From positions 4,450-68,449 of the forward strand of contig CAVLCA010000012.1 in the NCBI GenBank assembly GCA_963661495.1: 64,000 nt of DNA. The letters are read 5' to 3'. The translations under genes and the position numbers were made by a program. Positions 1-38,788 of the stretch are shown one piece after another (the first letter of the stretch is position 1; the number at the start of each line of letters is the position of its first letter). The DNA is from a bacterium. Its GTDB lineage: Bacteria > Bacillota > Clostridia > Oscillospirales > Acutalibacteraceae. The notes below the pieces were generated by a model that was not told the DNA's origin, did not search any database, and saw nothing but the letters and a program-made list of their open reading frames with translations.

Positions 1-339
1 TAACTGATAGTCCTGAACGCTGTAACCGCCCTTCATATTCATCAACTTCATATCAGTGATAGCTTCATCAGCGTTATTAGTTGTTTTATAACCTACATAA
101 ACAGCTCTTTTTGTTGAAAGCAAATTATCTGCGCCGTCGTTAAGGTTATTGTCGATTACCTCATAGTCATTGTCGGTAAGCCACTTTTTGGCTTCTTCCT
201 CCGTTTTGCCGTAGCTGATAATCATTTCTTTAACATACTTTTTGCCGTTGAATGTTGCGGCAAAAGCACTTGTGCAGGTGGTTACGCAAAGTGTAACCGC
301 AAGCACAACGCTAATTAATGTACTTAAAAATTTCTTCAT
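1..339 (-). CDS. 5' part (113 codons) of a further member of the tandem surface-protein paralog family (subfamily A); runs off the left window edge
   Basis: Own translation from ATG at 339: MKKFLSTLISVVLAVTLCVTTCTSAFAATFNGKKYVKEMIISYGKTEEEAKKWLTDNDYEV...MKLMNMKGGYSVQDYQ. It is colinear with the N-termini of ORFs 383..2635 and 2628..4859. GGAGG RBS at 347-351. Confidence 0.85.
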   Translation of the reverse strand, partial: MKKFLSTLISVVLAVTLCVTTCTSAFAATFNGKKYVKEMIISYGKTEEEAKKWLTDNDYEVIDNNLNDGADNLLSTKRAVYVGYKTTNNADEAITDMKLMNMKGGYSVQDYQL

Positions 340-382
340 ATTTTTTCCTCCGTTGCCATTAGCTTTTTCGGTAATTTATCCG

Positions 383-2635
383 TTAAGCATTTTGCTTCTT
401 TGTTTTTTTCTTTCCGGTAACCGTACCAAGGTAAAACGCCACAGCGGCTACAACGATTGCAACACCGCCACCGATGAGTGCATATGTTCCGTTTGAAATT
501 GCACTGCCGGCAAATGCGCTTGCGTCTGTACCGTAGAAAAGATAGATACCGTCATTTGAATCGGCATATGTATAACCGGCTTTTTTGTTTGTAAGATTTT
601 GAGCGGCACTTTCGCAGAAGATTGAAAGCGGTGTGCTGTCGTTCGGCAAATCGCTATTGCCGACCTGAACTGTAAAATCTGTTGTTATCGGGTCGCCTGC
701 TGACTTATCCTTAGTGGTGTACAGTGCCACCCACTGTTTGCCGACATCACCGTTCAAATCGCCGTAGTCGCCAAGGAGTTTATTGTTATCCTTAACCATT
801 CCCTGTTCTTCTCTGTTGCACTTTACAGCAGTATAATAGGTATATGTTTTTTTGTCGTTTTCGTCCACACCCTGGTTCACCATATGCAACGGAATCGGTG
901 TAAACTCAACATTATAATACGCTTTTACATCCTGATATGTGCTCCAAAGTGTTGCAGCTGCTAACACAAGGGTAACGCAAGTTACCGCAATACTCGCATA
1001 ACATACCGTCTTTTGAAATGTCTTTGCAGTTCCTATGCTCTTATTAAGTCTATAAATTTGCACTTCCTTTTCACCTGACTGCTTAAATAGTTCCTTCGCT
1101 TCGTTACTTAATCCGTCAGTAACTTTTTGACCGCCTTTTGATACTAAATCTTTGGATTCTTGGGCTAATTTATTAATATTAGCTGTCGTATCACTAATAA
1201 AGTCTTTCATAGCAGCTTTAGTAGCACTGTTAAATACCCAAGCAGCGGTTGTAGCAACAAGTCCGGCACCGAAACAACAAAGCAAAACCAATGATGTGGT
1301 TGAAATATTGTCGCTCAAACCGTTCACTGCGTTTTCACCTGTTGCCGATTGAAGCTTGTATGCCTCACCCGTAAGTGCAACTTCATCGGTAAAAACCGTT
1401 CTGTCTACACCGCTGTAAACTGAAACATTTAACGATTTAACAGAATCCACATCTGTTTCCTCAACTCCCTGCTGTAACGCTTCGTCGTTGTTTATGCCAA
1501 GACCTACGATTTGATACATTGTTAAGAAATCAAGGCAAGCCTTTTGACCGTTTGACAAAACGGAAACAAGCGGATAAAGCATATATCTGTCGCTGCCCTC
1601 AAGATCGTAATCACCACTCGTAATCAAATCAAGGAGTGTAATATCGTCATTTTTCAATGTTTTAAGAAGTTCATACTGAATACCTGCAGCAACCCAGTTT
1701 TCATCTTCAAAATCAGCGTTTGCCGACTTGTATGCTTCTATCTCTTCGCTTGTACTTGTAACAGAAATGTCTGCATTTGTATATTTTTCAAGAAGTGTTT
1801 TGTACTCGTCAAGCTTTGAAGCTATCGTTTCAGCATATTGATCGTATTGAGTTGCAAGTTTCTTTGTAGCTTGATTTACTGTAAGGTCATCCTTATCCAT
1901 AAGTTCATCAAGCATTTCATCGTAAGTTTTTGCTTTATTATACCTTTCAAACCAGAGTTCGTCGCTGTCGTCAGCCGCCGTTGCAATAGTTTGCTCTATA
2001 GAAAGAACAGCTTCTGCATTGCCCTGCATAAGAATGGTTGTCATATCGCCAACCTTTGCTTTTTCGTCATCGCTCAAAGCATTGTATTCTTCATCTGTAT
2101 ACTCTTCTCTTACTCGATTGAGTAAAAGGTCGCCCATATACTGCTCTGTGTCGTCATCATAAAGCATATTAAGCATATCGTGAGCCGCAATTGCACGACC
2201 CTTGTTTGCTTTGTAATTATCTCTGTATTCCTGAACAGCAACTTTGAAATTGCTGAAAAAGTTCTTAATGCTTTCCTTTTGCTCAGAGAGAAGCATTTGA
2301 TAATCCTGAACGCTGTAGCCGCCCTTCATATTCATAAGCTTCATATCAGTGATAGCTTCTTCTGCATTTTCTGTTGTTTTGTAACCGAGGTAAACGGCTC
2401 TTTTTGTTGAAATAATATCGTCGGCACCGTCGTTGAGGTTGCTGTCGATAACTTCATAACCGTTGTCGGTAAGCCATTTTTTGGCTTTCTCAGCCGTGTC
2501 ACCGTAGCTGATAATCATTTCCTTAACATATTTATTGCCGTTGAATGTTGCGGCAAAAGCACTTGTGCAGGTGGTTACGCAAAGTGTAACCGCAAGCACA
2601 ACGCTGATAATCGAACTGAATAATTTTTTATACAT
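383..2635 (-). CDS. Uncharacterised three-span surface protein, paralog subfamily A (750 aa)
   Basis: Signal peptide ...LAVTLCVTTCTSAFA|A. Hydrophobic spans at about aa 445-468, 544-566 and 717-739. Lys-rich tail GKKKTKKQNA. The ATG overlaps the stop of the upstream paralog (ATGTATAA at 2628-2635). AAGGAG RBS. Confidence 0.9.
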   Translation of the reverse strand: MYKKLFSSIISVVLAVTLCVTTCTSAFAATFNGNKYVKEMIISYGDTAEKAKKWLTDNGYEVIDSNLNDGADDIISTKRAVYLGYKTTENAEEAITDMKLMNMKGGYSVQDYQMLLSEQKESIKNFFSNFKVAVQEYRDNYKANKGRAIAAHDMLNMLYDDDTEQYMGDLLLNRVREEYTDEEYNALSDDEKAKVGDMTTILMQGNAEAVLSIEQTIATAADDSDELWFERYNKAKTYDEMLDELMDKDDLTVNQATKKLATQYDQYAETIASKLDEYKTLLEKYTNADISVTSTSEEIEAYKSANADFEDENWVAAGIQYELLKTLKNDDITLLDLITSGDYDLEGSDRYMLYPLVSVLSNGQKACLDFLTMYQIVGLGINNDEALQQGVEETDVDSVKSLNVSVYSGVDRTVFTDEVALTGEAYKLQSATGENAVNGLSDNISTTSLVLLCCFGAGLVATTAAWVFNSATKAAMKDFISDTTANINKLAQESKDLVSKGGQKVTDGLSNEAKELFKQSGEKEVQIYRLNKSIGTAKTFQKTVCYASIAVTCVTLVLAAATLWSTYQDVKAYYNVEFTPIPLHMVNQGVDENDKKTYTYYTAVKCNREEQGMVKDNNKLLGDYGDLNGDVGKQWVALYTTKDKSAGDPITTDFTVQVGNSDLPNDSTPLSIFCESAAQNLTNKKAGYTYADSNDGIYLFYGTDASAFAGSAISNGTYALIGGGVAIVVAAVAFYLGTVTGKKKTKKQNA

Positions 2636-4859
2636 TGGCTTTCTCCTTCTTTTTTCTCTCTACACTTCTGCCTACAAAGAATGCTGCAACCGCAACCGCA
2701 ACAGCCGATACGCCACCGATAAATGCGTACATTCCGTTTGAAAACGCACTTCCTGCAAATGCGTTCTCGTCTGCACCGTAGAAAAGGTAGATACCACCCT
2801 TTGAATCGTTATATGTGTAGCCCATTTTTTCATTTGTAAGATTTTGTGCAACGCTTTCGCAGAAAATCGAAAGCGGATTACGGTCATCCGGTATATTTGT
2901 GTCTTTATACTGAACAACCATATCGGTTGTTATCGGGTCGCCGGCGGCTTTGTCCTTGGTAGTGTACAGTGCCACCCACTGTCTGCCGACATCACCGTTC
3001 AAATCGCCGAAATCCTCAAGAAGCTTGTTGTTATCGTTTACCATTCCCTGCTCCTCTCGGTTGCACTTAACAGCCGAGTAATATGTAAACACCTTTTCGT
3101 CATTTTCATCGACGCCCTGATTTACCATATGGGACGGAATCGCAGTAAATTCAGTGTTGTAGTACGCTTTTACATCTTCGTAAACTCTCCAAAGCGAAAC
3201 GAGCATAAGCACGATTGTAACGCATGATATGATTATTCCGGCTGTGAAAAGCACTTTTGACATAGCAGCAGCACTTTTTGAAGAAGCTTTGGATTGAACA
3301 TATTTTTTATGAAAATCATTCGCTTCGTTTTCGAGAGCCTCGGCTTTTTCACCTTCTATTAATTCGTAAGAATCTGACAATTTTAATTCATATTTATTAT
3401 AGAAATCCTTTGAAGCTTTCTTCAAATTTTTAGATAAATGACTGTAATAACCGCTAAGAGAAAATGTGGCAAGCGTTGCAAGAGCCGAAACACCGAAAGA
3501 ACAATAGAAAATGAGCGATAATGTGGAAATGTTATCCGTCCACTTTTCCGTCGGGTTTTTGCCTGATGAATTTTGAAGCGTGTACGCCTCGCCCGTCAAA
3601 GCAACATCACCGTCAAAGAACGAGCGGTCAATACCCTCGTAAACAGAGTAAGTACCCTCTTCTTTTGAAACTGCTTTGCCTATTTTATCCATAGCCGCTT
3701 TAACAGTTTCGTCATTGTTCAAACCGATTGCCATAAGCTGTTGCATCGGCAAGAAGTCAAGACAGGCTCTTTGACCTTCGGTGAGCACCGATACAAGCGG
3801 ATAAAGCATATATCTGTCGGCATTTTCCACATCGTACTCATCGCTGTAAATCAAATCGTAAAGCGAAACTTCGTCGTTCTCCAACGATTTTGTAAGCTCG
3901 TACTGAGTTCCCGCCGTAAACCAAACGGAATAGTCAAAGTCCTCGTGTGCCTTTTGATACGCTTCAAGCTCATCTTCCGTGCTGTAAAGAGTTATATCGG
4001 TATTTGTATAATTTTCAAGATAAGATTTGTATTGAACAAGGGCTTCCGCAATTTTCTTTGCGTCATCGTCATATTCGATAGCAAGCTCTTTGGTCGCCTG
4101 TTTTAATGTAATATCGTCATTATTCAAAGCGTCACTAATCATATCGTCATAGGTCTTTGCATCTTGATATCTTGTCATCCAAAGCGTGTCGTTGTCGTCC
4201 GTTGCAAGAGCGATAACTTGCTCCATCGCCAACACGGCATTGCCGTTTGCCTGCATAAGAATTGTCGTCATATCGGCAACTTTTGCCTTTTCGTCGTCAG
4301 ACAAAGCATTATATTCCTCGTCCGTATACTCCTCTTTTGTTTTGTTGAGCAAAAGGTCACCGAGATTTTGCTTCGTGTCGTCGTCATACATCATATTGAG
4401 CAAATCGTGAGCCGCAATTGCACGCTGCTGACCTGCATTATAGTTGTTTCTGTATTCTTTAACGGCAACCTTAAAGTTGTTAAAAAATGCTCTGATATTG
4501 CTTTTTTGCTCATCAAGAAGCATTTGATAGTCCTGAACGCTGTAACCGCCCTTCATATTCATAAGTTTCATATCGGTTATAGCCTCGTCAGCGTCGTCGG
4601 TCGTTTTATAACCGATGTAAACTGCTCTTTTTGTTGAAAGTTTGTTATCTGCGCCCTCGTTGAGATTGTAATCAAGAATTTCATAATCGTTATCGGTAAG
4701 CCATTTTTTAGCCTCGTCTGCTGTGTTACCGTAGCTTATAATCATTTCCTTGACATACTTTTTACCACTAAACGAAGCCGCAAAGGCACTTGTGCAGGTG
4801 GTAACACAAAGTGATACCGCCAGCACTATACTAATCAAAGCGCTCCAAAATTTCTTCAT
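2628..4859 (-). CDS. Uncharacterised three-span surface protein, paralog subfamily A (743 aa)
   Basis: Same architecture as 383..2635. The N-terminal about 440 aa and C-terminal about 190 aa are colinear with it. The loop between spans 1 and 2 is unrelated. Confidence 0.9.
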   Translation of the reverse strand: MKKFWSALISIVLAVSLCVTTCTSAFAASFSGKKYVKEMIISYGNTADEAKKWLTDNDYEILDYNLNEGADNKLSTKRAVYIGYKTTDDADEAITDMKLMNMKGGYSVQDYQMLLDEQKSNIRAFFNNFKVAVKEYRNNYNAGQQRAIAAHDLLNMMYDDDTKQNLGDLLLNKTKEEYTDEEYNALSDDEKAKVADMTTILMQANGNAVLAMEQVIALATDDNDTLWMTRYQDAKTYDDMISDALNNDDITLKQATKELAIEYDDDAKKIAEALVQYKSYLENYTNTDITLYSTEDELEAYQKAHEDFDYSVWFTAGTQYELTKSLENDEVSLYDLIYSDEYDVENADRYMLYPLVSVLTEGQRACLDFLPMQQLMAIGLNNDETVKAAMDKIGKAVSKEEGTYSVYEGIDRSFFDGDVALTGEAYTLQNSSGKNPTEKWTDNISTLSLIFYCSFGVSALATLATFSLSGYYSHLSKNLKKASKDFYNKYELKLSDSYELIEGEKAEALENEANDFHKKYVQSKASSKSAAAMSKVLFTAGIIISCVTIVLMLVSLWRVYEDVKAYYNTEFTAIPSHMVNQGVDENDEKVFTYYSAVKCNREEQGMVNDNNKLLEDFGDLNGDVGRQWVALYTTKDKAAGDPITTDMVVQYKDTNIPDDRNPLSIFCESVAQNLTNEKMGYTYNDSKGGIYLFYGADENAFAGSAFSNGMYAFIGGVSAVAVAVAAFFVGRSVERKKKEKANV

Positions 4860-4895
4860 TCTTTTTCCTCCGTCAAATTATGCAACCGTATGCCG

Positions 4896-7163
4896 TTAAG
4901 CATTTTTCTTCTTTTTTCCTTTGTTTCTGTTCTTTAACTTTTGGAAAAGTACATCAACAGCAACACCCATAACGGCACCTACACCAACGGCGATTGCCAT
5001 ATTTCCGCTTGAGAAAACCGAACCTACAGCCAAAGTTTCTCCTCTGTCAAAGTAAATATATGTTCCGTTTGCGGAATCTTTTTTGCCTGTGTAATCCTTT
5101 GAAGTAATGTTAAGAGCCGACTCTTCGCCAAAAAGATTTACGCTGTCGTAATCCAGAGGGGCATTGGATGATCCCTTAACAATTTTCATATCGGTTGTAA
5201 TCGGTTCACCAACAGATTGATCCTTTGTGTAGTAAAGAGTGAGCCAACCAACCGTACCCACAAAGTTATTCAAATCGCCCGCATTGCCCGAAAGGCTCGG
5301 CACGTAGTTATATGCAACATAGTCGTCCCCGTTGTCGGTACTTACAGTGTCAACAATATGATTTGGAATTGACGAATACTTTGCTGTTTGCGGTTCGTTT
5401 TCAGCAAACAATGTGTAAAGAGCCATACCGATTGAAATAAGTGTAAAAATAACCGTTACCGCAAGGAAGAACGCTCTTATTCCCAATATAACCTTACCGC
5501 CCGTTGTAGAGGCAATTGACGAACCTTTGCCGTAAGACATATTGGCAAGTTTTGAAGAGACTGTTCTTGTTGCTCGCTCGGTATAAGTTTCATCACATAT
5601 AATATTTTCAAACACTAATTTAGAAACTTTAGCTGACTCAACATGATAGCGGAACATTGCATTTGCCGAAGTTCTTGTTGCGGAGCCGATTGTAGTATCA
5701 AGTCTATGTAAAAACGCAGTTATTCCGAGATATATTGAAGCCGAAACCACCGCAGGAACAACATAAAATGCCCAAAAATCGTACCATTTATAGTCGCCGG
5801 CTTTTTGCGGTTGGAAAACTCTATCGAACAAATCCTCCGACCAACTCTTACCGCTTGAAGTGTATTTTTCGGTTGTTGCACTTGTCAAAGCAACGCCGTC
5901 ATCAAAAAGGCTTCTGTCTACGCCTTCGTAAATCGAAACGCTGTCATAACCCGAAAGGAGTTCGCTTACTTCGGCAAAGTCATCTTTTTTTGAATCGTCG
6001 CCGTCAATAATCACACGGGATATAACCTGCTGAAGACCGACATTTGTTACCTGTGCACAAAGCTTTTTACCCATAAAATAAGCAAGTGAGTAAAGTTCTG
6101 TATCATCAACTTCGCTCTCGTCACGCATAAAGAAATCGAGCATTGTGCCGTCACCGTATTCAACGCCGTTAAGATATTCAATAAGAACAGCATCCGAAAT
6201 GTCATTGGTTGCCGACTGAACCTCAATATTCTTTTCAAGCACTTCATTGAGCGCAGTTTCCGACATACCTTCCGTTACATCGGACGAAGTCGGAGCGTCT
6301 TCAACCTGCTCTGTAATTGCTTGAGAATTGAATATGAGTTTGCCGTTTTTCTCTGTGAAGTACTTAGTTTTAACAGCACTGAGGTTTTGATAAAATGTAT
6401 TCCATGTAAGACGAATAGTATCTGCCGAAGTACCGTAATCAGCCGCTAAAGCCTGATAAGCCTTGTTTGGAGTAGGATATGAATCCATATACAAATCCAA
6501 AAGGAAATCTTCATCCGATTCTGCCATCTTTTCAATCCACTTTTTATCGTTTGAGCTTTCACCCGCAATAAACAAAAGCTGTTGAATGTTCACAATAAAT
6601 GACGAATAACCCTGCATAAACACTTTGGTTATATCGGTCGTGTCCTTCAAATCGCAGTTGAGAAGATAATCGCCCATATAGGTTTGTGAATCGTCCTCAT
6701 AAAACTTATTAAGTGTGTCGTGTACAGAAACGGCAATTGCCTTACCGTCATTATAGTTTGTTCTGTAAGCGGTAATCATCGGAATCAAGCCGTTAACTGT
6801 AGCCGTTACGCTTTCCTTAATACTGTCAAGAAGTCTTTCGTAATCCGTGTAACTGTACTTACCGTTCATATTCATAGCAGAAAGACCGGTGATAGCTTCG
6901 TTTCTGTTCAAAGTTGATTTGTAGCCCAAATACATTCCGCCGTCCGAAAGACTTTCATTCAAATTGTCCTCCGACATAAGTTTATATCCCTGTGCCTTGA
7001 GCTTTGTTTCTGCTTCATCGGCAGACTTTGCCGTACAAAGAATCAAATCCGAAATATATGATTCCTTACTTGTTGCGGCAAAAGCACTTGTGCAGGTTGT
7101 TACACAGATTGTAACAGCCAAAATCACGCTTATTAACGCACTGAAGAATTTTTTATTTCTCAT
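4896..7163 (-). CDS. Uncharacterised three-span surface protein, paralog subfamily B (755 aa)
   Basis: Signal peptide ...LAVTICVTTCTSAFA|A, then TSKESYISDLILCTAKSADEAE...MYLGYKST..EAIT. Spans at about aa 463-485, 559-585 and 722-742. Tail KNRNKGKKKKNA. Confidence 0.9.
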   Translation of the reverse strand: MRNKKFFSALISVILAVTICVTTCTSAFAATSKESYISDLILCTAKSADEAETKLKAQGYKLMSEDNLNESLSDGGMYLGYKSTLNRNEAITGLSAMNMNGKYSYTDYERLLDSIKESVTATVNGLIPMITAYRTNYNDGKAIAVSVHDTLNKFYEDDSQTYMGDYLLNCDLKDTTDITKVFMQGYSSFIVNIQQLLFIAGESSNDKKWIEKMAESDEDFLLDLYMDSYPTPNKAYQALAADYGTSADTIRLTWNTFYQNLSAVKTKYFTEKNGKLIFNSQAITEQVEDAPTSSDVTEGMSETALNEVLEKNIEVQSATNDISDAVLIEYLNGVEYGDGTMLDFFMRDESEVDDTELYSLAYFMGKKLCAQVTNVGLQQVISRVIIDGDDSKKDDFAEVSELLSGYDSVSIYEGVDRSLFDDGVALTSATTEKYTSSGKSWSEDLFDRVFQPQKAGDYKWYDFWAFYVVPAVVSASIYLGITAFLHRLDTTIGSATRTSANAMFRYHVESAKVSKLVFENIICDETYTERATRTVSSKLANMSYGKGSSIASTTGGKVILGIRAFFLAVTVIFTLISIGMALYTLFAENEPQTAKYSSIPNHIVDTVSTDNGDDYVAYNYVPSLSGNAGDLNNFVGTVGWLTLYYTKDQSVGEPITTDMKIVKGSSNAPLDYDSVNLFGEESALNITSKDYTGKKDSANGTYIYFDRGETLAVGSVFSSGNMAIAVGVGAVMGVAVDVLFQKLKNRNKGKKKKNA

Positions 7164-7200
7164 TTTAACACCATTCCCTATACTTATTATATATAGTCAG

Positions 7201-9489
7201 TTACTGTTGATTAGGAACTGTCTTTTTTCTCTTTTCTTTCATCTTTCGGAAAAGCATATCAATCGCTATGCCGATAACCGCGCCCACACCGATTGAAATC
7301 GCTGTATTTCCGCTTGAGAAAACAGAACCCGTTGTTATTGCCTCACCACGGTTAAAATAAATGTAAGTTCCGTCTACAGAATCCTTAACTCCCGTGTAAT
7401 CCTTTGAAGTGATATCAAGAGCCGTCTCTTCACCAAAGAGGTTTATGCCCTCGTAATCAATAGGCGTCTTAGTTGAACCTTTAACAATTTTCATATCGGT
7501 TGTAAGCGGTTCGCCTGCTGCACTATCCTTTGTATAATAAAGAGTAAGCCAACCTGCCTTACCGACAAAATTGTTCAAATCACTTGCGTTGCCGGAAATA
7601 TTCGGCACAAAATTATATGCAATATAATCTTCGCCGTTGTCGGTAGTCACAGTGTCAACTATATGATTAGGTATCGTGGTATATTCTGCCGTTTGCACTT
7701 CGTTTTCGGAAAACAGTGTGTAAATTGCCATACCGATTGAAACAAGAGTTAAAATAATTGTTACGGCAAAGAAGAATGTTCTGAGCCCCGAAAGAAGTTG
7801 ACCGCCGCTCTTTGTTGAGCCGTCAACCAATGTACCCTTACCGAAAATTGCTCGTGAAGACCTTGATATTTCCTTTGCGTCTGTTGCATATAAATGCGGA
7901 TTGAATTTAATTTTTTTAAAAACCGCTTCCTTACCAATCTCTATTGACTGTCTGTTTACTTCCATACAACTGTTTACAAATTTTTGTTTCGTTTTGCCGT
8001 ATAAATCTTTAATCAAAGTTTTTTCTAAATGATTCGAAATACCGACAATCGTGCCGTAGCATGTAGCTGAAATAACTGTCGGCATAACATAGAATGCCAA
8101 AAAGTCATACCACTTATATTCACCGGCTTTTTGCGGTTGGAAAATTCTGCCAAACAGTCCGTCCGACCAGCTCTTGCCGCTTGAAAGGTTCTTGCTTGTT
8201 GTTGCACTTGTCAAAGCAACGCCGTTTTCAAAAAGAGTTCTGTCTACACCCTCGTAAACCGAAACTTTTTCGTAGCCTGAAAGAATACCTTCAATATTTT
8301 CGTAATCGCTTGCCTGAGCGTCGTCGCCGACAATGGTTAAGCGAGATACGACCTGCTGAAGTCCGACATTTGCCGACTGAGCACAAAGCTTTTCGCCCAT
8401 AAAGTATGCAAGTGTGTAAAGTTCAAAATCATTAACTTCGCTCTCGTCACGCATAAAGAAGTCAAGCATTGTGCCGTCGCCGTATTCCAAACCGTCGAGA
8501 TACGAAATGAGCACACTGTCAACAAAATCACTGCTTGCTTCCTGACCGTCAATACTTGCCGACATTGCGTCAACAGCGTCGTCTGTCGTTGAACTGTCGT
8601 CTAAATTAAACTTATCCGTATCAACGCTGTCAAAAGTTTGATTCATAGCGTCTTCGTTAAATTTAAGCTTGCCGTCACTTTCGGTAAAATATTTGTTCTT
8701 CGTGGTTTTAAGGTTTTCATAAAACACATTCCATGAAAGACGAATGTTGTCTGCCGAAGTGCCGTAATCTGCCGCCAAAGCTTGATACGCCTTGTTCGGA
8801 GTCGGGTAAGAATTGATGTACAAATCCAAAAGGAAATCGTCGTTTGAATCTGCCATTTTTTCAACCCACTTCTTGTCGTTTGAGTTTTCACCCGCGGTAA
8901 ACAAAAGTTGCTGAATATCAACAATAAATGCCGAATAGCCCTGCATAAACACCTTGGTTATATCGGTCGTGTCCTTCAAATCGCAGTTGAGAAGATAATC
9001 GCCCATATAGGTTTTTGAATCGTCTTCATAAAACTTGTTGAGCGTATCGTGAACCGAAACGGCAACCGTTCTGCCCGCTTTGTAATTTGTTCTGTAAGCT
9101 GTAATCATCGGAATCAAGCCGTTGATTGTTGTTGAAACGCTTTCCTTTAAACTGTTAAGAAGATTTTCATAATCGGTGTAACTGTACTTACCGTTCATAT
9201 TCAAAGCCGAAATATCAGTAATGGCTTCACTTCTGTTTGTGGTTGATTTATAGCCCAAATACATACCGCCGTCTGTAAGGCTGTCATTCAAGTTTTCATC
9301 CGACATCAGTTTGTAATCCTGCGCCTTGAGCTTTTTTTCTGCTTCATCAGCAGATTTTGCCGAGCAAAGAACCAAGTCGGAAATGTACGATTCTTTACTC
9401 GTTGCGGCAAAAACGCTTGTACAAGTTGTAACGCAGAGGACAACAGCCAAAATCGCACTGATAATTGCACTTAGCGTTTTTTTACGCAT
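7201..9489 (-). CDS. Uncharacterised three-span surface protein, paralog subfamily B (about 762 aa)
   Basis: Colinear with 4896..7163. The ORF track starts at 9495 (ATG), but the second in-frame ATG at 9489 has better spacing to the GGGGGAG RBS. Both overlap the stop (9482-9484) of the upstream paralog. Confidence 0.88.
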   Translation of the reverse strand: MRKKTLSAIISAILAVVLCVTTCTSVFAATSKESYISDLVLCSAKSADEAEKKLKAQDYKLMSDENLNDSLTDGGMYLGYKSTTNRSEAITDISALNMNGKYSYTDYENLLNSLKESVSTTINGLIPMITAYRTNYKAGRTVAVSVHDTLNKFYEDDSKTYMGDYLLNCDLKDTTDITKVFMQGYSAFIVDIQQLLFTAGENSNDKKWVEKMADSNDDFLLDLYINSYPTPNKAYQALAADYGTSADNIRLSWNVFYENLKTTKNKYFTESDGKLKFNEDAMNQTFDSVDTDKFNLDDSSTTDDAVDAMSASIDGQEASSDFVDSVLISYLDGLEYGDGTMLDFFMRDESEVNDFELYTLAYFMGEKLCAQSANVGLQQVVSRLTIVGDDAQASDYENIEGILSGYEKVSVYEGVDRTLFENGVALTSATTSKNLSSGKSWSDGLFGRIFQPQKAGEYKWYDFLAFYVMPTVISATCYGTIVGISNHLEKTLIKDLYGKTKQKFVNSCMEVNRQSIEIGKEAVFKKIKFNPHLYATDAKEISRSSRAIFGKGTLVDGSTKSGGQLLSGLRTFFFAVTIILTLVSIGMAIYTLFSENEVQTAEYTTIPNHIVDTVTTDNGEDYIAYNFVPNISGNASDLNNFVGKAGWLTLYYTKDSAAGEPLTTDMKIVKGSTKTPIDYEGINLFGEETALDITSKDYTGVKDSVDGTYIYFNRGEAITTGSVFSSGNTAISIGVGAVIGIAIDMLFRKMKEKRKKTVPNQQ

Positions 9490-11914
9490 TCGCATTCTCC
9501 CCCTTGCCGCTCTTTGCCTTTTTCTTTTTGATTGCCTTGCAAACCAAGCAAGAAATTGCTGCTACCACTACCATTGAAGCACCGGCAATAAGTGCATATG
9601 TTCCGCTTGAGAACACACTGCCTGCGTATGCGTTACTGTCAACATCGTAGAAAAGGTAAATACCTTTCTTAGAGTCTGCATATGTGTAGCCTGCTTTTTT
9701 GTTTGTAAGATTTTGAGCCGTGCTTTCACAGAACATTGAAAGAGGTGTGGAATCGTCCGGCACATCGCTCTTGCCGTACTGAACATCAAAATCAGTTGTA
9801 ATCGGGTCGCCTGCCGAGCTGTCCTTTGTTGTATAAAGTGCAACCCACTGTCTGCCGACATCACCGTTGAGGTCACCGTAATCTTCAAGGAGCTTGTTAT
9901 TGTCGGTTACCATCTGTGCTTCTTCTCTGTTGCACTTAACAGCTGTATAATAAGTAAACACCTTTTCGTCCTTGTCGTTTACGCCCTGATTTACCATATG
10001 CATAGGAATCGGTGTGAACTCTGCATTATAGTACTTCTTCAAATCTTGATATGAGCTCCAAAGTGAAGCTACCATCAAACCAATTGTAATACATGAAATT
10101 GCAACCGAAAAACCGGTCATCCATTTTTGCAATGAAGCGTTACCTTTTACAGCGTCGGTTGTTCTGGTGCCAAGGTTTTCACCTTGCAATGTTTTTTGAG
10201 TGTTTGCAATATCGTCAACCGAGTCTGCCATTTGATTTTTAATTGAGTTAGCTACATCATCGCCAACATCACCGACTCTCTCGGCAATTTGTGCTGAACC
10301 GTTTGCAATTTGAACACCCTTCGCACCAGCCTCTTCAAATACAAAACTACTGTCGGAAGAAAAGCTTCTTTCCAATGTCTCTGAAGCAGCACTTACTGCA
10401 TCGTCAAACCGATCTGCTGTTTCGGAAATAGCATTCGATACGGTTTCATGACACATATTAAAATCGGCGTCAGCCAATTTGCTTATATTCACCTTATTGT
10501 TCCAAATAATAGTACTTCTTGTCGTCCAGCTGGCAATTGTTGCCACCATACTAATGCCGGTCAAAACATACAAAAGTTTTGTTGAGCTTGAAATGAATCC
10601 TGTCCAGTTTTCAACAGCAACTTTGTTTGATGAATTTTGAAGTGCATATGCGTCGCCGGTAAGAGCAACATTTTCGGAAAAGATTGAACGGTCCATACCG
10701 GAATAAATCGATACATAATACTTTTCCTCATCAATATCAATGTTCTTTGCAGCTTCCGCAATTGACTTATCGTCATTGATACCCATAGAAACTATCTGGC
10801 TCATTGTGATAAAGCCAAGGCAAATTCTTTGGCCTTTTGTCAATGAAGCAACCAAAGGATAAAGCAAATATGCGTCTTCGCCCTCAACATCATATTCGTC
10901 GCTTGTTACCAAGTCGAGGAGTGATACATCGTCAACTACCAACGACTCTAACAAATTGTACTGAGTACCTACTGTAAGCCAATTAGACATATCAAAATCT
11001 TCGTGCTCTTTTGCATAAGCTTCAATTTCTTCCTGAGTGTTATCAAAAGAAACTCCTGCGTCTGTGTAATTTTTAAGATATGTTGCATACTCTTCAAACT
11101 TCGAAGCGATTGTCTTTGCATCAACATCATATTCTGCCGCAAGTTTTTTAGCAGCTTGGCTGACTGTAAGATTATCGTTTTCCATAAGGTCATCGACCAT
11201 TTCATCGTAAGTCTTTGCCTTTTGGTATCTGTCAATCCAAGTTTTGTCATTATCGTCGGAAGCAAGTGCGATTGCCTGCTCCATAACAAGAACAGATGTG
11301 CTGTTACCCTGCATAAGGATTGTTGTCAAGTCGGCAACCTTGCTTTGTTCTTTCTTTGAAAGAGCCGCAAATTCGTCTTCCGTGTACTCTTCCTTAACCT
11401 TTTGAATAAACAAGTCGCCCAAATATTCTTCTGTGTCGTTATCATACATATGGTTGAGCACTTCAAAAGCGGTGAGAGCACGCTGCTGACCGTTTTTGTA
11501 ATTTTCTCTAAATTCGTTAATTGCAACGATAAAGCTGTTAACAAATTCCTGAATATCAGCCTTTTGCTGTTCAACAAGCATTTGATAATCCTGAACGCTG
11601 TATCCGCCGTTCATATTCATTACTTTCATATCAGTAATAGCTTCGCTTGCCTTTGAGGTTGTTTTGTAGCCAAGATAAACAGCTCTCTTTGTTGAGAATG
11701 TGTCATCGGCGCCGGCATTAAGGTTGTCGTCAACAAACTTATAACCTCTGTTTTGGAGCCAAGACTTAGCGTCAGCTTCTGTTTTACCGTAGCTTAAAAT
11801 CAATTCTTTAACATAGGTCTTACCTGTAAATGTTGCCGAAAACGCCGTGCACGGCTGTAACATACAGGTAAAACAAAGAATAATTGCCACAATAGATTTA
11901 ATCATTTTCTTCAT
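9482..11914 (-). CDS. Uncharacterised three-span surface protein, paralog subfamily A with enlarged loop (810 aa)
   Basis: N- and C-terminal modules are colinear with 383..2635. The inter-span loop is about 133 aa, versus about 65-79 aa in the other paralogs. The start overlaps the 3' end of 11898..13178 by 17 nt. Confidence 0.9.
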   Translation of the reverse strand: MKKMIKSIVAIILCFTCMLQPCTAFSATFTGKTYVKELILSYGKTEADAKSWLQNRGYKFVDDNLNAGADDTFSTKRAVYLGYKTTSKASEAITDMKVMNMNGGYSVQDYQMLVEQQKADIQEFVNSFIVAINEFRENYKNGQQRALTAFEVLNHMYDNDTEEYLGDLFIQKVKEEYTEDEFAALSKKEQSKVADLTTILMQGNSTSVLVMEQAIALASDDNDKTWIDRYQKAKTYDEMVDDLMENDNLTVSQAAKKLAAEYDVDAKTIASKFEEYATYLKNYTDAGVSFDNTQEEIEAYAKEHEDFDMSNWLTVGTQYNLLESLVVDDVSLLDLVTSDEYDVEGEDAYLLYPLVASLTKGQRICLGFITMSQIVSMGINDDKSIAEAAKNIDIDEEKYYVSIYSGMDRSIFSENVALTGDAYALQNSSNKVAVENWTGFISSSTKLLYVLTGISMVATIASWTTRSTIIWNNKVNISKLADADFNMCHETVSNAISETADRFDDAVSAASETLERSFSSDSSFVFEEAGAKGVQIANGSAQIAERVGDVGDDVANSIKNQMADSVDDIANTQKTLQGENLGTRTTDAVKGNASLQKWMTGFSVAISCITIGLMVASLWSSYQDLKKYYNAEFTPIPMHMVNQGVNDKDEKVFTYYTAVKCNREEAQMVTDNNKLLEDYGDLNGDVGRQWVALYTTKDSSAGDPITTDFDVQYGKSDVPDDSTPLSMFCESTAQNLTNKKAGYTYADSKKGIYLFYDVDSNAYAGSVFSSGTYALIAGASMVVVAAISCLVCKAIKKKKAKSGKGENANA

Positions 11915-13178
11915 TTTTCTTCTTACCTTTCTTCTTATAAATTAATAATCCGACTACTACCAAAACGATAATAACCAAGAATACAATTATTGCCTTTATA
12001 TTACCCGAGCTGATTACCGAACCCGACTTATCGCCTTCGGTCTCCTCCTCGGTAGTTGCCTCAGTGGTTTCCTCTTTTTCTATATCAAGATATTCATCGG
12101 TAACTTCTTCAACCGTCGTGCTTTCCTGCTCGGTGGTCGCTTGTGTCGTTTCCTCCGGAACACTCACATTTGCAGTGCCCAAATAAATACCGTAAATTTT
12201 CCTGTCGCCTGCCGAAACACAACTGCATTCGTCTTTGCTTTTTGCAAACGATTTATATTCTGACGATGTTTTTGAAATCGATTTATTTGTTGCCGCATAA
12301 ATTCCTGCCCAATCGCCGAGGGTAAAACTGTCGTTAAACAACTTGCCGTTTGAAATATCAAGCAAGTACGCACCCGACTTGCCGTCTCGGCTGAGTTTTA
12401 CATCGTCGCCGTCAATACCGAGTTCGGTAACGGCTTGCGTTTGGTCCGCCGTTCTTTGATAAGCAATATAAGTCACATTATTATTACTGTCGGATATATC
12501 CTTATCCAAGTAATAATCACAGCCCTTTGATGCCGCCGAATTAAGTGCCTTGGCTTTTGTACTTGCCGTAACCATACACACATTTGAAATGTACTGCTTA
12601 ATACTCGACTCTCTGTACATCAAAAGATAAAGTTCATTGTTGCTGATACCTTTGTCGAAATTAGCAAGTTTGCCGTCATCGGTACGAACCGGTGACGAGC
12701 CGTCATTCCTAAGCGAAACAACGCTGTCTTCGCTCGTAAAGCCCGATACCGTATCAAGTGAGGTAATTCCCTCTCCCGCCGAACTGTCACTTGTGCAATA
12801 AAGATAAATTGCCGAGCCGGAAGTTCCGTTATTTAAATTAACATCCGCAACTAAATTATATGTATGACCGTTTGAAGCAATTGAGCTTTCTTTCTTGTCC
12901 GATACAATAAAATCTGTTATAGCGTTTGAGCCTTTTTTGTAACCCAAATATACCATTGAACTTTTGTTATCGTCCGTAACCAAATTCAAGCTTTGGAACA
13001 TAACCGAATATCCGCTTTTTTCAAGATTGGTTCTTGCGTTTGCTCCCGTTGCAAGAGTAACCTCGGAAATGTAAGATTCCTTGGCAAACGCACACACGGA
13101 GAAACTGTTTATAACCATACAAATCGTAAGCATTATGCACACAATTCCTATACGGCTTTTGTTTATTTTCTTAAACAA
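11898..13178 (-). CDS. Short membrane-anchored relative of the paralog family (about 426 aa from TTG 13178)
   Basis: From TTG 13178: MFKKINKSRIGIVCIMLTICMVINSFSVCAFA|KESYISEVTL..., with RBS GAGGTG at 13187-13192. Two copies of the family N-module. An acidic Thr/Glu stalk, one C-terminal span, and tail KKKGKKKNEEND. The ORF-track ATG at 13235 lies inside the predicted promoter spacer. Confidence 0.8.
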   Translation of the reverse strand: MFKKINKSRIGIVCIMLTICMVINSFSVCAFAKESYISEVTLATGANARTNLEKSGYSVMFQSLNLVTDDNKSSMVYLGYKKGSNAITDFIVSDKKESSIASNGHTYNLVADVNLNNGTSGSAIYLYCTSDSSAGEGITSLDTVSGFTSEDSVVSLRNDGSSPVRTDDGKLANFDKGISNNELYLLMYRESSIKQYISNVCMVTASTKAKALNSAASKGCDYYLDKDISDSNNNVTYIAYQRTADQTQAVTELGIDGDDVKLSRDGKSGAYLLDISNGKLFNDSFTLGDWAGIYAATNKSISKTSSEYKSFAKSKDECSCVSAGDRKIYGIYLGTANVSVPEETTQATTEQESTTVEEVTDEYLDIEKEETTEATTEEETEGDKSGSVISSGNIKAIIVFLVIIVLVVVGLLIYKKKGKKKNEEND

Positions 13179-13225
13179 AATTCCACCACCTCTATTATTT
13201 AAAATTATATATTTATACACACTAA

Positions 13226-13254
13226 ATTTTAACATTATGTTTATAATTTGTCAA
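13226..13254 (-). promoter_or_regulatory. Sigma-A type promoter for the paralog array
   Basis: Minus strand reads TTGACA (13254-13249), a 17-nt spacer, then TAAAAT (13231-13226). It sits in the 245-bp gap after rfbC, about 40 nt upstream of TTG 13178. Confidence 0.6.
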
Positions 13255-13480
13255 TAATTTGACAACAATTAAGTATTGTAAAAAGTTACAAATTAACGCC
13301 CCTGATTTTCAACACTTTTATTTAAATTTTCACCCATTCCACCACACAAAAACACTTTTAAAGCCGTCGTATAATTACAAGACTGTCAAGGCAAAATCAG
13401 TCTATAACTAAAAAATAAAACTCCTCACAGCAGACTGTCAAATCTGCCATAAGAAGTTTGTCAAAAACTCATTCAAAATA

Positions 13481-14023
13481 TCAAAGCATTTTCCAATTTT
13501 TATCTTTTTCCGAAAGATTGAGCACCATGCCGTCTGTAACCGGCCACTGTACGCCGATTGTAGGGTCGTTATATGCAATTCCGCCTTCATCATTTGGATG
13601 AAAGAAATCATCAACTTTATAGCAGAATTCGGCATAGTCGCTCAATACAAGAAATCCGTGAGCAAACCCCTTAGGAATAAAGAATTGCTTTTTGTTTTCC
13701 TCTGTAAGCTCAATGCCATACCATTTTAAATATGTCGGGCTGTTTTCACGCATATCAACGGCAACATCAAAAACAGAGCCTTTTATAACTCTGACAAGCT
13801 TTGATTGCGGATACTTTATTTGTCTGTGAAGTCCGCGAAGAACGCCTTTAGTAGAGGCAGATTGATTGTCTTGAACAAATTTAATGTCAATTCCGGCTTC
13901 TTTCATATCGTTTTCATTGTATGTTTCCATAAAATATCCACGATTATCACCGTGAACGGTTGGGGTAATAACGCAAAGTCCTTCAATCCCACCAACATTT
14001 TTTTCAACTGTAATTTGTCCCAT
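13481..14023 (-). CDS. rfbC: dTDP-4-dehydrorhamnose 3,5-epimerase
   Basis: 180 aa; motifs GDNRGYFMETY, VLRGLHRQ, GFAHGF typical of RmlC. TAATG overlap with rfbD. Confidence 0.95.
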   Translation of the reverse strand: MGQITVEKNVGGIEGLCVITPTVHGDNRGYFMETYNENDMKEAGIDIKFVQDNQSASTKGVLRGLHRQIKYPQSKLVRVIKGSVFDVAVDMRENSPTYLKWYGIELTEENKKQFFIPKGFAHGFLVLSDYAEFCYKVDDFFHPNDEGGIAYNDPTIGVQWPVTDGMVLNLSEKDKNWKML

Positions 14024-14883
14024 TAATAATCTATCTCCTTAAGGTATCTTGACAAAGCGTCTTGCCAAGTCGGAAGCGGATTAAATCCGTTTTCAATAAG
14101 CTTTCGTTTGTCAAGTCTGCTGTTAAACGGTCGCTTTGCTTTAGACAAACCGTATTCTTCTGTCGTCACCGGCTTGACCTTAGTTGAATAACCCGCTTGC
14201 CTGAATATCTCACAAGCAAAATCGTACCAACTGATATATCCACCCTCGTTTGTTGCATGATAGTAACCGTATTTTTCGGTTTCAATCATATCAACAAGAA
14301 GTCGTGCAAGGTCATAAGTATATGTCGGCGTTCCGATTTGGTCGTTAACAACCGTAATTTGCTCATACTTTTTACCAATATTAAGCATAGTTTTAATAAA
14401 ATTATTGCCGTTAACCCCAAAAACCCAAGCTATACGAACAATAAAGTATTTGTCGAGCGTTTCTACAACCGCAAGCTCACCATCTAATTTTGTTTGACCA
14501 TAAACATTAAGAGGTGCATAATCTTTGCAATCAGGCTTCCAAGGTTCTGTTCCCTGACCGTCAAAAACATAATCTGTGCTGATATACATCATCTTGCAGT
14601 TGAGCTTTTTGCATACTTCAGCAATGTTTCTTGTGCCGTCTGTATTTACCGCACGAACCAAAGCAATTTTGTCGTCATCTTCAGCGAGGTCAACAGCCGT
14701 CCAAGCAGCACAATGAATAACTGCATCCGGTTTTTCTTTGCCGATTACTTTCTCGACGCTTTGCCTGTCGGTAATATCCATATCTTTGATATCAACACCA
14801 ACAGCCTCATGCCCTCTTTTAGCCAATTCGTTAACAACATCATAACCGAGCTGACCTTTTGCACCCGTTACCAATACTTTCAT
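14023..14883 (-). CDS. rfbD: dTDP-4-dehydrorhamnose reductase
   Basis: 286 aa; MKVLVTGAKGQLG Rossmann start, YISTDYVFDG and YGQTK motifs typical of RmlD. Confidence 0.95.
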   Translation of the reverse strand: MKVLVTGAKGQLGYDVVNELAKRGHEAVGVDIKDMDITDRQSVEKVIGKEKPDAVIHCAAWTAVDLAEDDDKIALVRAVNTDGTRNIAEVCKKLNCKMMYISTDYVFDGQGTEPWKPDCKDYAPLNVYGQTKLDGELAVVETLDKYFIVRIAWVFGVNGNNFIKTMLNIGKKYEQITVVNDQIGTPTYTYDLARLLVDMIETEKYGYYHATNEGGYISWYDFACEIFRQAGYSTKVKPVTTEEYGLSKAKRPFNSRLDKRKLIENGFNPLPTWQDALSRYLKEIDY

Positions 14884-15903: not shown

Positions 15904-15905
15904 TG

Positions 15906-16799: not shown

Positions 16800-16836
16800 A
16801 AACACCTTTCCTTAATGGACATAAAAACCACAAAAA

Positions 16837-17955: not shown

Positions 17956-17956
17956 A

Positions 17957-20615: not shown

Positions 20616-20797
20616 AATTCAACCATCCAGTATACTCTTGGAAATTTACAAATAAAAAATAATCTTTTACCTATCTTTCCTTTTAATTTTTTATAATCAT
20701 ATTTATAATATTTTAATTTTTTTACGACAGATAAATATAAATCTTTAAATTCATGTGTTCTGGTCAAGCTTTTTTGTAACATTTCAACCTAATTTTC

Positions 20798-22716: not shown

Positions 22717-22770
22717 ATAAATTCACCTAAACATATCAGTTACTAATAAGTAAACAAATTACAATTATAA

Positions 22771-23838: not shown

Positions 23839-23848
23839 TTTGTTTCTC

Positions 23849-25743: not shown

Positions 25744-25768
25744 ATTTACCGCCTAATAAAATAAACGC

Positions 25769-26890: not shown

Positions 26891-26908
26891 TTTTAAAAGA
26901 CTTTTTAA

Positions 26909-28036: not shown

Positions 28037-28048
28037 AAATGATCTCCG

Positions 28049-28855: not shown

Positions 28856-28857
28856 TA

Positions 28858-31221: not shown

Positions 31222-31233
31222 AATTCCACCCAA

Positions 31234-32454: not shown

Positions 32455-32530
32455 AACTGTCCTCCAAATGTGTAAACTGCACAAACAAAATGATTTTATT
32501 TGTACATTCTCAATATATTCCTCAAAGTAA

Positions 32531-38783: not shown

Positions 38784-38788
38784 AGCGT

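Follow-up and report, generated by a model that had tools for sequence, protein, structure and literature searches.

An array of paralogous clostridial membrane proteins with an apparently split MABP-type beta-prism

The two conserved modules that recur in a family of paralogous proteins encoded at one end of the window (the whole 64,000-nucleotide stretch of DNA that was analysed) appear, from profile comparisons, to be the halves of a single MABP-type three-blade beta-prism. The N-module would correspond to blade 1 and the C-module to blades 2 and 3, with one DLN-type motif per blade, and about 470 aa comprising an acidic helical domain, TM1, a variable loop and TM2 separate the two. The array proteins are integral membrane proteins and belong to a single large family without a name; their genes form part of a conserved operon. 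What is new here is a known prism domain split by an insert, within an uncharacterised operon.

Organisation of the array and its operon

Within the window the array comprises five complete large genes (743-810 aa), one truncated large gene and a 426-aa relative, all on the minus strand. The genes and their flanking signals are as follows:

1..339, minus strand: next subfamily-A gene, N-terminal 113 aa, cut at the window edge (full 750-aa gene in contig L036)
383..2635, minus strand: 750-aa gene, subfamily A; reference protein for the model and alignments
2628..4859, minus strand: 743-aa gene, subfamily A
4896..7163, minus strand: 755-aa gene, subfamily B
7201..9489, minus strand: 762-aa gene, subfamily B
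9482..11914, minus strand: 810-aa gene, subtype A1, with a long acidic loop; at array position 1 in other genomes too
11898..13178, minus strand: short relative, 426 aa, first gene, with TTG start and RBS
13226..13254, minus strand: sigma-70-like promoter upstream of the short gene, TTGACA-17-TAAAAT with extended TG, score 11/12
13418..13459, minus strand: terminator-like hairpin, 19 pairs and a T-run, which ends the upstream rfbABDC operon and parts the array from it

The open reading frames, their junctions (gaps of 43, 36 and 37 nt; overlaps of 8, 8 and 17 nt) and the single strong promoter are as the initial annotation described them. The promoter has the top sigma-70-like score in positions 1-17500 (17.5 kb), and the array is probably co-transcribed. 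The TTG start of the short gene at 13178 is preceded by the RBS GAGGTGGTGGA; a 445-aa reading frame for this gene was rejected, as its start would fall within the -10 region of the promoter. Another ATG at 9495 would extend the 762-aa product to 764 aa.

Alignment bears out an element order common to all large array proteins and the division into two subfamilies. Subfamily A consists of four genes with 56-84% identity to the 750-aa gene, and subfamily B of two genes with about 30% identity to A. Orthologues of the position-1 (A1) gene share 53-89% identity across loci. The 426-aa product of the first gene has a signal peptide, two intact MABP-type prisms, an acidic disordered linker, one TM anchor and a Lys-rich tail, and 72 homologues were found. 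Its AlphaFold2 (AF2) model has a pLDDT of 78.5 with beta domains at 55-210 and 215-352 (445-aa numbering). Given the two intact prisms and the single anchor, the idea that this gene is a truncated copy was rejected.

The array does run past the left edge of the window, as had been suspected. There are 11 large genes in a 99%-identical contig (L036) and likewise 11 in another assembly (L037), which comes from the same species or a near one. After the large genes, the 99%-identical contig encodes a Pmp-repeat protein, then a relative of 1546 aa and a secreted protein of 433 aa. The operon order begins with the two-prism anchored protein, the A1-type gene and A and B genes in varying number, and continues with a TM-anchored Pmp-repeat beta-helix protein, a relative of about 1540 aa that carries a split prism and several extra intact prisms, and a secreted two-repeat protein of about 435 aa. 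Individual genomes have between 1 and about 9 A-type genes. A multi-subunit envelope system, as initially proposed, is plausible; a multi-subunit complex of fixed stoichiometry is disfavoured because the copy number differs between genomes.

Protein architecture and the split prism

Close homologues of the 750-aa reference number 417, and the family as a whole forms 1279 clusters at 50% identity (E<=1e-3), with members from gut Clostridia. Neither Pfam nor NCBIfam matches the family. The array genes show dN/dS values of 0.13-0.17 against their orthologues in a related locus (L004), and the family is under purifying selection.

Each large protein has a signal-peptide-like N-terminus ending AFA|A (by hydropathy and charge), an ectodomain of about 420 aa with a net charge of about -40, three hydrophobic spans and a Lys-rich tail. 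Hydropathy and charge agree with the initial description of these elements, and neither an LPXTG motif nor a lipobox was found in the array proteins, again as described. In the 750-aa reference the parts are:

2324..2536, minus strand: blade 1 of the putative split beta-prism, aa 34-104, NLN at 66-68, YLGYKTT..EAITD (hhalign 97%, PDB profile match, motif conservation)
1316..2299, minus strand: acidic all-helical ectodomain, aa 113-440 (AF2 pLDDT about 90)
950..1300, minus strand: TM1, variable helical loop (predicted cytoplasmic) and TM2, aa 446-562 (hydropathy)
518..898, minus strand: blades 2 and 3 of the putative split beta-prism, aa 580-706, DLN at 626-628, NLT at 680-682
386..487, minus strand: TM3 anchor and Lys-rich cytoplasmic tail, aa 717-750 (hydropathy and charge)

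The charge distribution and hydropathy fit a topology with both conserved modules outside the cell and the variable loop inside, as the initial annotation proposed. The family member P0302, in which blade 3 is followed by ricin-type lectin (RicinB) and PI-PLC-X domains and then by the last TM anchor, points to the same topology. AF2 of residues 110-415 gives helices with a pLDDT of about 90; this helical ectodomain has no Foldseek match at E<0.001 in PDB or BFVD and no Pfam match. The loop ranges from about 70 to 300 aa across family proteins.

Several comparisons argue for one prism in two halves. The N-module aligns with blade 1 of the intact domain of the short protein with a probability of 97% (hhalign), and the C-module with its blades 2-3 at E 3e-5. 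When the two are joined in order (N+C, 130 representatives), the profile matches the whole intact domain with a probability of 99.1% and an E of 1.9e-18 over 152 columns, spanning template positions 2-160 of 161. In a control with the order reversed (C+N), the N-module alone aligns and the score is 88.6 versus 114.9. A profile built solely from the joined modules of the large A/B proteins has a single PDB match, the beta-prism of Mpf2Ba1, at E 1.8e-5; this match (E about 1e-5) is of modest significance, consisting of two per-blade matches, each with an E of about 0.7. The intact domain of the short protein also has a homologue in the C-terminal prism of P0192, a MACPF protein that matches Mpf2Ba1 over the MACPF domain and prism (E 6e-9).

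The DLN-type motifs are among the best-conserved positions in 134 sequences. The blade 1 motif is [D/N]-L-N (N in 131/134), that of blade 2 has D in 132/134 followed by L and N (121/134), and that of blade 3 has N in 120/134 followed by L and [T/N]. The blade 2-3 segment also carries the motifs WVALYTTKD.SAGDPITTD and IYLFY. The strand pattern agrees blade by blade between AF2 models. Structure comparison with Foldseek did not bear out the fold: the full-length model gave no significant match, and with the short protein model the top PDB match was the MABP domain of MVB12B (3TOW), which was not significant (E 0.87, TM 0.42). The collinearity of the two modules with the intact domain suggests that they contact each other in one prism. 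The initial statement that the proteins belong to no characterised family stands in that no full-length match to one was found; it does not stand for the modules, which are recognisable as one probable split MABP-type prism.

Proposed role and competing explanations

The explanation that we favour, though tentatively and with a little less than even confidence, is that these are split-prism membrane proteins of a membrane-proximal envelope assembly. Both prism halves would lie outside the cell and come together at the outer surface of the cytoplasmic membrane, where TM2 and TM3, flanking blades 2-3, would keep the prism against the membrane. The DLN motifs may be expected to coordinate metal here, because such motifs bind Mg2+ in Mpf2Ba1 and Ca2+ in related toxins. 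The prisms of this kind that have been characterised (Mpf2Ba1, Plu-MACPF, MPEG1 and MVB12) all have a part in binding membranes or receptors; by analogy, the ligand of the array prism would be a lipid or glycolipid head-group in the membrane of the producing cell, much as proposed for MPEG1, itself membrane-anchored. The MVB12 and MPEG1 prisms bind anionic lipids via basic loops, and the strongly acidic ectodomain is a poor fit with anionic-lipid binding. The helical domain would supply the family-specific activity, and the co-expressed paralogues together with the accessory proteins would build up a coat or assembly located under the wall or inside it. Of these proteins, only the giant one with several prisms would be long enough for outward reach.

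An unlikely alternative is that the proteins are surface adhesins or multi-specificity binders, each paralogue showing a differing surface for host, dietary or microbial ligands. Such a role would suit the adhesin-like Pmp-repeat beta-helix protein encoded in the operon, the lectin and PI-PLC fusion in P0302, the lineage-specific copy-number expansion, and the receptor or membrane binding of MABP-type prisms in toxins. However, the pattern of divergence runs against it, and against the multi-specificity suggested in the initial annotation: among within-genome paralogues the outward-facing prism and helical domain are best conserved (80-90% identity, dN/dS 0.02-0.15), and divergence is concentrated in the loop predicted to be cytoplasmic (10-25% identity, dN/dS 0.30-0.62). 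The ectodomain is moreover tethered to the membrane at both ends, so it would sit beneath the Gram-positive wall, and the proteins have no wall-spanning stalk, LPXTG motif or wall-binding repeat. A part in cell-wall or capsular polysaccharide accessory machinery, for example in the export, attachment or length control of a rhamnose polymer, is distinctly improbable. The array lies directly downstream, on the same strand, of rfbABDC and a glycan locus, the window holds a large polysaccharide locus upstream, and rfb genes adjoin the array also in a distant lineage (L016) and, as a fragment, in L004. Yet this adjacency, the only basis for polysaccharide handling, is seen at three loci and absent at six others inspected, where the neighbours are unrelated (a PrsW protease and a 7-TM protein, GH3, permeases, an HTH regulator), and the strong promoter and hairpin set the array apart from rfb. 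The B proteins also give faint Wzz-like matches (E 0.03-0.17), but these are well short of threshold and coincide with the signal-peptide region at the N-terminus.

We consider it less probable still that the proteins form a hetero-oligomeric membrane machine (a channel, secretion or insertase-like device) in which TM1, a coiled-coil loop and TM2 would dock cytoplasmic partners in the manner of Get1/WRB. The family profile matches WRB/GET1 (E 0.002) and TMCO1 (E 1.1) over this segment, the topology is Get1-like (N-terminus out, coiled coil in, C-terminus in), and the gene overlaps suggest translational coupling. The WRB/GET1 match, however, covers the K/E/A-rich stretch where the profile is least conserved, and it probably reflects composition; the range of loop lengths, the wide copy-number variation and the lack of ATPase or obvious substrate genes in the operon also speak against such a machine. 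Least probable of all are latent helical pore-forming or contact-dependent toxins, built from a receptor-binding prism, a helical bundle and a hydrophobic hairpin (ClyA/Hbl-type). The closest characterised relatives of the prism are toxin domains, and ClyA/Hbl-type toxins also come as paralogue operons. ClyA and AhlC occur among the Foldseek matches, but at noise level (E 1.7-2.9); the three spans, C-terminal TM anchor and Lys-rich tail fit a stable membrane topology, immunity-like small genes are absent, and there is no MACPF domain.

Relation to known systems

Get1/WRB and TMCO1 (Oxa1 superfamily) share with the array proteins the order TM, cytoplasmic coiled coil, TM in the same orientation. 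The likeness is limited to the low-complexity, poorly conserved loop, the array proteins have a 155-aa half-prism between TM2 and TM3, and the profile match is weak (E 0.002); no evidence of homology was found.

The MABP prisms of MVB12 and MPEG1 belong to the same prism superfamily as the array prism (de Souza and Aravind, 2010; PMC10344926). MABP prisms bind lipid, and binding to the same membrane (in cis) has been proposed for MPEG1 (PMC6753088, PMC2881412), which, like the array proteins, has both a MABP prism and a membrane anchor. In the eukaryotic proteins the domain is uninterrupted, uses basic loops to bind acidic lipids and serves trafficking or immunity, whereas the array proteins are strongly acidic and extracytoplasmic. 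Among Clostridia, the MABP cell-wall protein CLOL250_02048 (de Souza and Aravind, 2010) likewise brings MABP prisms and beta-helix repeats into the envelope, but in one polypeptide, whereas in the array operon the Pmp-repeat beta-helix protein comes from a separate gene. It has no split prism, helical insert or three-span topology, and a paralogue array is not described for it.

The prism of MACPF toxins (Mpf2Ba1, 8B6U/8B6V; Plu-MACPF/Mpf1Aa1, 2QP2) shares with the array prism three homologous blades, in each of which a hydrophobic 'YL.Y' strand comes after a DLN-type motif, and P0192 is intermediate between the two families. In Mpf2Ba1 and its relatives the DLN motifs coordinate Mg2+/Ca2+ at the membrane-binding end, and the Mpf2Ba1 prism is related to that of 2QP2 and to the MABP domain 3TOW (PMC10344926). 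In contrast to the toxin prism, that of the array is split after blade 1 by the insert with its two transmembrane helices, lies between anchors in the membrane of the producing cell, has NL(T/N) rather than DLN as its third motif, and carries an extra N-terminal strand and helix on blade 1.

The paralogue array and its operon

The array of seven paralogous genes lies on the minus strand of the window, and its description as a paralogue array in the initial annotation is confirmed. The reading built on that description is partly supported.

Genes of the array (large genes and partial copy from the ORF listing)
1-339, minus, further copy, residues 1-113
383-2635, minus, 750-aa gene
2628-4859, minus, 743-aa gene
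4896-7163, minus, 755-aa gene
7201-9495/9489, minus, 764/762-aa gene
9482-11914, minus, 810-aa gene
11898-13178, minus, short gene of 426 aa, TTG start behind GAGGTGGTGGA

The junctions agree with those first reported: the gaps measure 43, 36 and 37 nt, the overlaps 8, 8 and 17 nt. The start assigned to the short gene (TTG at 13178, RBS GAGGTGGTGGA, 426 aa) also stands, and the longest ORF, starting at 13235, was rejected as it would open within the -10 element. A sigma-70-like TTGACA-17-TAAAAT site with an extended TG (13254-13226) is the top site in 17.5 kb, and a 19-bp terminator-like hairpin (13459-13418) lies 3' of rfbC. Alignment bears out both the order of elements common to all large products and the two subfamilies: the four A genes are 56-84% identical to the 750-aa gene, and the two B genes are about 30% identical to A.

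The array had been suspected to run past the left window edge, and two loci from other assemblies establish this. The contig L036, 99% identical to the window, has the order short-810-762-755-743-750-750-761-747-734-754. L037 gives the end of the operon as ...734-754-749, followed by a Pmp-repeat protein of 489 aa, proteins of 1546 and 433 aa, and an MFS gene on the opposite strand. The two orders together make the complete locus one of 11 large paralogues in about 35 kb.

Downstream partners of the array, all in L037 within 8915-16322
Pmp/POMP-repeat beta-helix protein, 489 aa, with a C-terminal TM anchor
Giant distant relative, about 1540 aa (1546 in L037), combining a split prism with several intact ones and several hydrophobic spans
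Secreted protein of about 435 aa (433 in L037), with two repeats of about 190 aa

Equivalents of these three partners occur in loci L013-L027. Of 36 loci retrieved from other MAGs, 23 have at least two large paralogues in tandem, with up to nine within the retrieved flanks; where there is a single copy, the contig is mostly short or cut. The recurring core order is the two-prism short protein, the first-position A type (A1), a variable number of A copies, B, the Pmp-repeat protein, the giant relative and the ~435-aa protein. A PrsW-type intramembrane protease and a ~230-aa protein with about seven TM spans adjoin the operon in 9-11 of the 36 loci (L013-L018, L023-L027), near the first operon gene (for example L024 3486-4849), on the same strand or divergently; the window lacks the pair. 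Only the Pmp/POMP repeats and PrsW were recognised among the accessory proteins: the giant relative and the 231-aa 7-TM protein are dark, as is the 433-aa protein, which has no database match. PADLOC protein models matched neither the window proteins nor the accessory proteins, and an origin in a prophage or defence island was rejected for want of support.

The family is large. A relative 99% identical to the window protein (P0001) was used in its place, as a record of the exact sequence was not found. There are 417 close homologues of about 750 aa. When 1.84 billion cluster representatives were searched with a profile, the matches numbered 1279 clusters at E<=1e-3 and, at the stricter E<=1e-30, 530; the roughly 1300 family clusters are clusters at 50% identity. 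None of the 417 homologues bears a name or a Pfam domain, and the cluster members are likewise nameless. All carriers seem to be Clostridia of the gut or rumen. The MAG labels on L006, L007, L014, L015 and L023 include Eggerthellaceae, Bacteroides faecis, Sphaerochaetaceae, Hallerella and Roseburia intestinalis; such bin-level names are probably wrong for near-identical loci of Clostridia type, and given these unreliable labels carrier taxonomy was taken only as general 'gut/rumen Clostridia'.

Other features of the window
13481-16805, minus, rfbA-rfbB-rfbD-rfbC (dTDP-rhamnose), directly upstream of the array and closed by the 13459-13418 hairpin
16837-32484, minus, large polysaccharide biosynthesis locus
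32624-33649, SpoVAD
35152-45317, minus, second, mostly uncharacterised operon
46328-47518, minus, second repeat protein, with Flg_new repeats
48131-50572, minus, 813-aa protein with response regulator, HD-GYP and GGDEF domains
60604-63990, minus, 1128-aa protein with Listeria-Bacteroides repeats, Big_2, CHB_HEX_C and a type I dockerin

The polysaccharide locus encodes FrhB-like, Wzx-type flippase, pyruvyl transferase, GT2 and GT1/GT4 glycosyltransferase, PglD-like acetyltransferase and DegT aminotransferase products. Its GC content falls to 27-33% over 18000-30000 against about 40% elsewhere, a drop which suggests that it was acquired horizontally. The operon at 35152-45317 encodes 739-aa and 1052-aa proteins without a Pfam match, a HEAT-repeat protein, a 749-aa HD-GYP-type protein and a GT2 synthase-like protein with weak chitin/cellulose-synthase similarity; it may be a c-di-GMP-linked exopolysaccharide system, and the 813-aa c-di-GMP signalling protein is encoded close to it. 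The dockerin and repeat proteins together with SpoVAD point to a spore-forming host that encodes dockerin proteins, of the cellulosome-type Clostridia.

Identity of the conserved modules

Direct PDB searches with single sequences and profiles of the full proteins or the short family returned nothing significant. Against Pfam and NCBIfam, all seven window proteins showed nothing but noise below the threshold. The lead came from the short gene, as its weakest homologue, P0192, bears a MACPF domain (PF01823, E 1.6e-11). The C-terminal domain of P0192, about 160 aa long, can be aligned twice to the short protein, once to residues 55-208 (32% identity, pairwise E 3e-12) and a second time to residues 215-284. 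P0192 in turn matches the insecticidal MACPF toxin Mpf2Ba1 (8B6U) at E 6e-9, in the MACPF domain as well as in the C-terminal beta-prism, the latter with three 'DLN.GAGG..IYL.Y' units. A chain of homology holds from the short protein through P0192 to Mpf2Ba1. Relatives of the Mpf2Ba1 prism are 2QP2 and 3TOW, the MVB12B MABP domain (PMC10344926), and the MABP prism itself was defined by De Souza & Aravind (PMC2881412).

In the large proteins, alignment pairs the N-terminal module with blade 1 of the intact domain (probability 97%) and the C-terminal module with blades 2-3 (E 3.4e-5). When the two were joined, a profile of 130 representatives aligned collinearly with the whole intact domain over 152 columns and template positions 2-160 of 161 (probability 99.1%, E 1.9e-18); in a control with the module order reversed the N-module alone aligned, and the score was 88.6 versus 114.9. 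The joined-module profile from the A/B family alone had the Mpf2Ba1 prism blades as its sole PDB match, at a modest significance (E 1.8e-5 and 3.4e-5). The N-module has one copy of the repeat 'DLN...YL.Y..(A/P)IT' and the C-module two, and the DLN-type positions of this repeat rank among the most conserved across 134 representatives. Blade 1 has [D/N]66-L67-N68 (N in 131/134, numbering of the 750-aa protein), blade 2 has D626 (132/134), L627 and N628 (121/134), and blade 3 deviates from DLN with N680 (120/134)-L681-[T/N]682.

The strand patterns of two AF2 models match blade for blade. The Foldseek search with the short-protein model (pLDDT 78.5) placed the MABP domain 3TOW first of 350,542 PDB chains at a level that is not significant (E 0.87, TM 0.42), and the full-length model (pLDDT 71; helical domain about 90) had no match at E<0.001 in PDB or BFVD.

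The two modules are thus resolved, by profile comparison, as the predicted halves of one split MABP-type prism, and the halves would pack together. The initial annotation had recognised no characterised family; this still applies to the full-length proteins, for which no family match was obtained, and it no longer applies to the modules. Blade 1 and blades 2-3 of the large proteins lie about 470 aa apart with two TM spans in between; only the first gene, of 426 aa, has the prism in one piece. Repeat structure, motif and profile similarity place the family, at the level of the predicted domain and with its contiguity broken, in the MABP-type/MACPF-associated type-I beta-prism superfamily.

Membrane layout, evolution and readings of function

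Hydropathy and charge give the large proteins a signal-peptide-like N-terminus ending AFA|A, an ectodomain of about 420 aa with a net charge of about -40, and TM1 near residue 450 and TM2 near residue 545 with a 70-150-aa loop between them. An acidic stretch of about 155 aa follows and, past TM3, a Lys-rich tail. A regex scan found neither an LPXTG sorting signal nor a lipobox in any of the seven products. The predicted layout starts with a signal peptide and an outer N-terminus; TM1 leads to the inner loop, TM2 back out to blades 2-3, and TM3 to an inner Lys-rich tail. It agrees with the earlier placement of both conserved modules outside and the loop inside, and it fits the split prism, since an intact prism needs both halves on one side of the membrane. 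Ricin-type lectin and PI-PLC X domains are typical extracellular modules. The family member P0302 (L038 4463-8296), whose gene sits among other large paralogues, carries both between blade 3 and the terminal TM anchor, and giant relatives have several extra intact prisms at this same position, which independently supports an outer location of blades 2-3.

Against orthologues in L004 (86-91% identity), overall dN/dS is 0.13-0.17, and by this measure the array genes are functional. The prism modules and helical domain have values of 0.02-0.15 and the TM1-loop-TM2 region 0.30-0.62. The prism modules of paralogues within a genome share 80-90% identity, their TM1-loop-TM2 regions only 10-25%. Positive diversifying selection on the loop was rejected, as a dN/dS of 0.3-0.6 is relaxed rather than positive; the loop is a poorly constrained helical hairpin. 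A1 and B are conserved across genomes as orthologous types. The middle A copies share 65-83% identity within a genome versus 52-60% between genomes, and this closer likeness points to lineage-specific expansion or concerted evolution.

These patterns bear on the roles that were initially proposed. A set of exposed adhesins of differing specificities is not favoured, nor is the proposed multi-specificity, as it is the outward-facing parts that vary least between paralogues (80-90% identity, dN/dS 0.02-0.15). A machine of fixed stoichiometry is at odds with the varying copy number. Polysaccharide handling draws on the rfb genes next to the array, but that adjacency is not general: rfb also precedes the array in L016 and, as a fragment, in L004, and not in six other loci with inspected upstream flanks. 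A conserved rfb link was rejected accordingly, with rfb upstream in three loci only and the other neighbours unrelated.

The conserved operon suggests instead a membrane-proximal envelope assembly. In such an assembly TM2 and TM3 would clamp the prism onto the outer face of the cytoplasmic membrane, while the acidic helical domain would depart from blade 1 and re-enter the membrane at TM1. The prism would recognise a membrane lipid, glycolipid or receptor, by analogy with all characterised MABP-type prisms, and as it is tethered to the membrane its target is probably the cell's own membrane, as proposed for MPEG1. The helical domain, which has no recognisable fold, probably bears the family-specific activity.

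Comparison with known systems

Among the bacterial MABP domains described are standalone ones, fusions to MACPF, and Clostridium cell-wall proteins that combine the domain with beta-helix repeats (PMC2881412); a literature search on MABP in Clostridia returned nothing relevant. The prisms of MVB12, MPEG1 and the toxins bind membrane lipids or a receptor (PMC2881412, PMC10344926, PMC6753088), and binding to its own membrane has been proposed for membrane-anchored MPEG1 (PMC6753088). Mpf2Ba1 has one DLN motif per sheet; at the end that binds the membrane, these motifs coordinate Mg2+, or Ca2+ in toxins related to it (PMC10344926). Unlike the MACPF/CDC pore-forming proteins, the seven window proteins have no Pfam match to MACPF (PF01823), which occurs only in the distant relative P0192. 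Toxin-like readings found no support in the fold comparison, as ClyA and AhlC, of the ClyA/Hbl/Ahl-type toxins, appeared only at E 1.7-2.9 and TM 0.08-0.12 normalised to the query (Foldseek). The predicted topology of TM1-loop-TM2 is that of the TM, coiled coil and TM in the Oxa1 superfamily (Get1/WRB, TMCO1). The family profile over 449-564 (TM1-loop-TM2; window about 950-1300 in the 750-aa gene) matched WRB/GET1 at E 0.002 and TMCO1 at E 1.1; both matches are probably compositional, the one to WRB/GET1 being confined to the variable K/E-rich, low-information loop columns and the flanking spans.

No precedent was found for a prism split by about 470 aa that cross the membrane twice, for a helical domain inside a prism insert, for the three-span topology, or for tandem arrays of up to 11 genes with conserved accessory genes, and none of the proteins has a family model or name. 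The family can take up 25-35 kb in the small genome of a gut anaerobe, with a strong promoter-like site in front of it, and has no name, model or predicted role. The operon would be an apparatus of about 35 kb made of one anchor protein with two prisms, as many as 11 split-prism paralogues, a beta-helix protein with an anchor, a giant protein of several prisms and a secreted two-repeat protein, often with a PrsW-type protease and a 7-TM protein. That it is an unrecognised envelope apparatus of gut Clostridia without a characterised counterpart, and as a whole a categorically new system, is a tentative proposal, less likely than not but with a real chance of being right. On this reading its principle of domain splitting would be a beta-prism put together across a transmembrane hairpin, which might link what happens at the outer membrane face to a cytoplasmic hairpin that evolves rapidly. 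If the operon does build an envelope structure, it would be a new Gram-positive surface component in an important part of the gut microbiota.

Recognition of the split prism offers the first handle on the family: it would fix the topology, points to lipid or glycolipid binding, and predicts a mutable metal site at N68, N628 and T682. Blades parted by two membrane passes would be an unusual case for the evolution of protein architecture and for membrane-protein folding. The prism assignment would also link the eukaryotic MABP domains (ESCRT-I, DENND4, MPEG1) and the toxin prisms to an abundant family of bacterial membrane proteins, which, if true, would represent a membrane-integrated bacterial form of the domain later used by eukaryotes in ESCRT and perforin-2.
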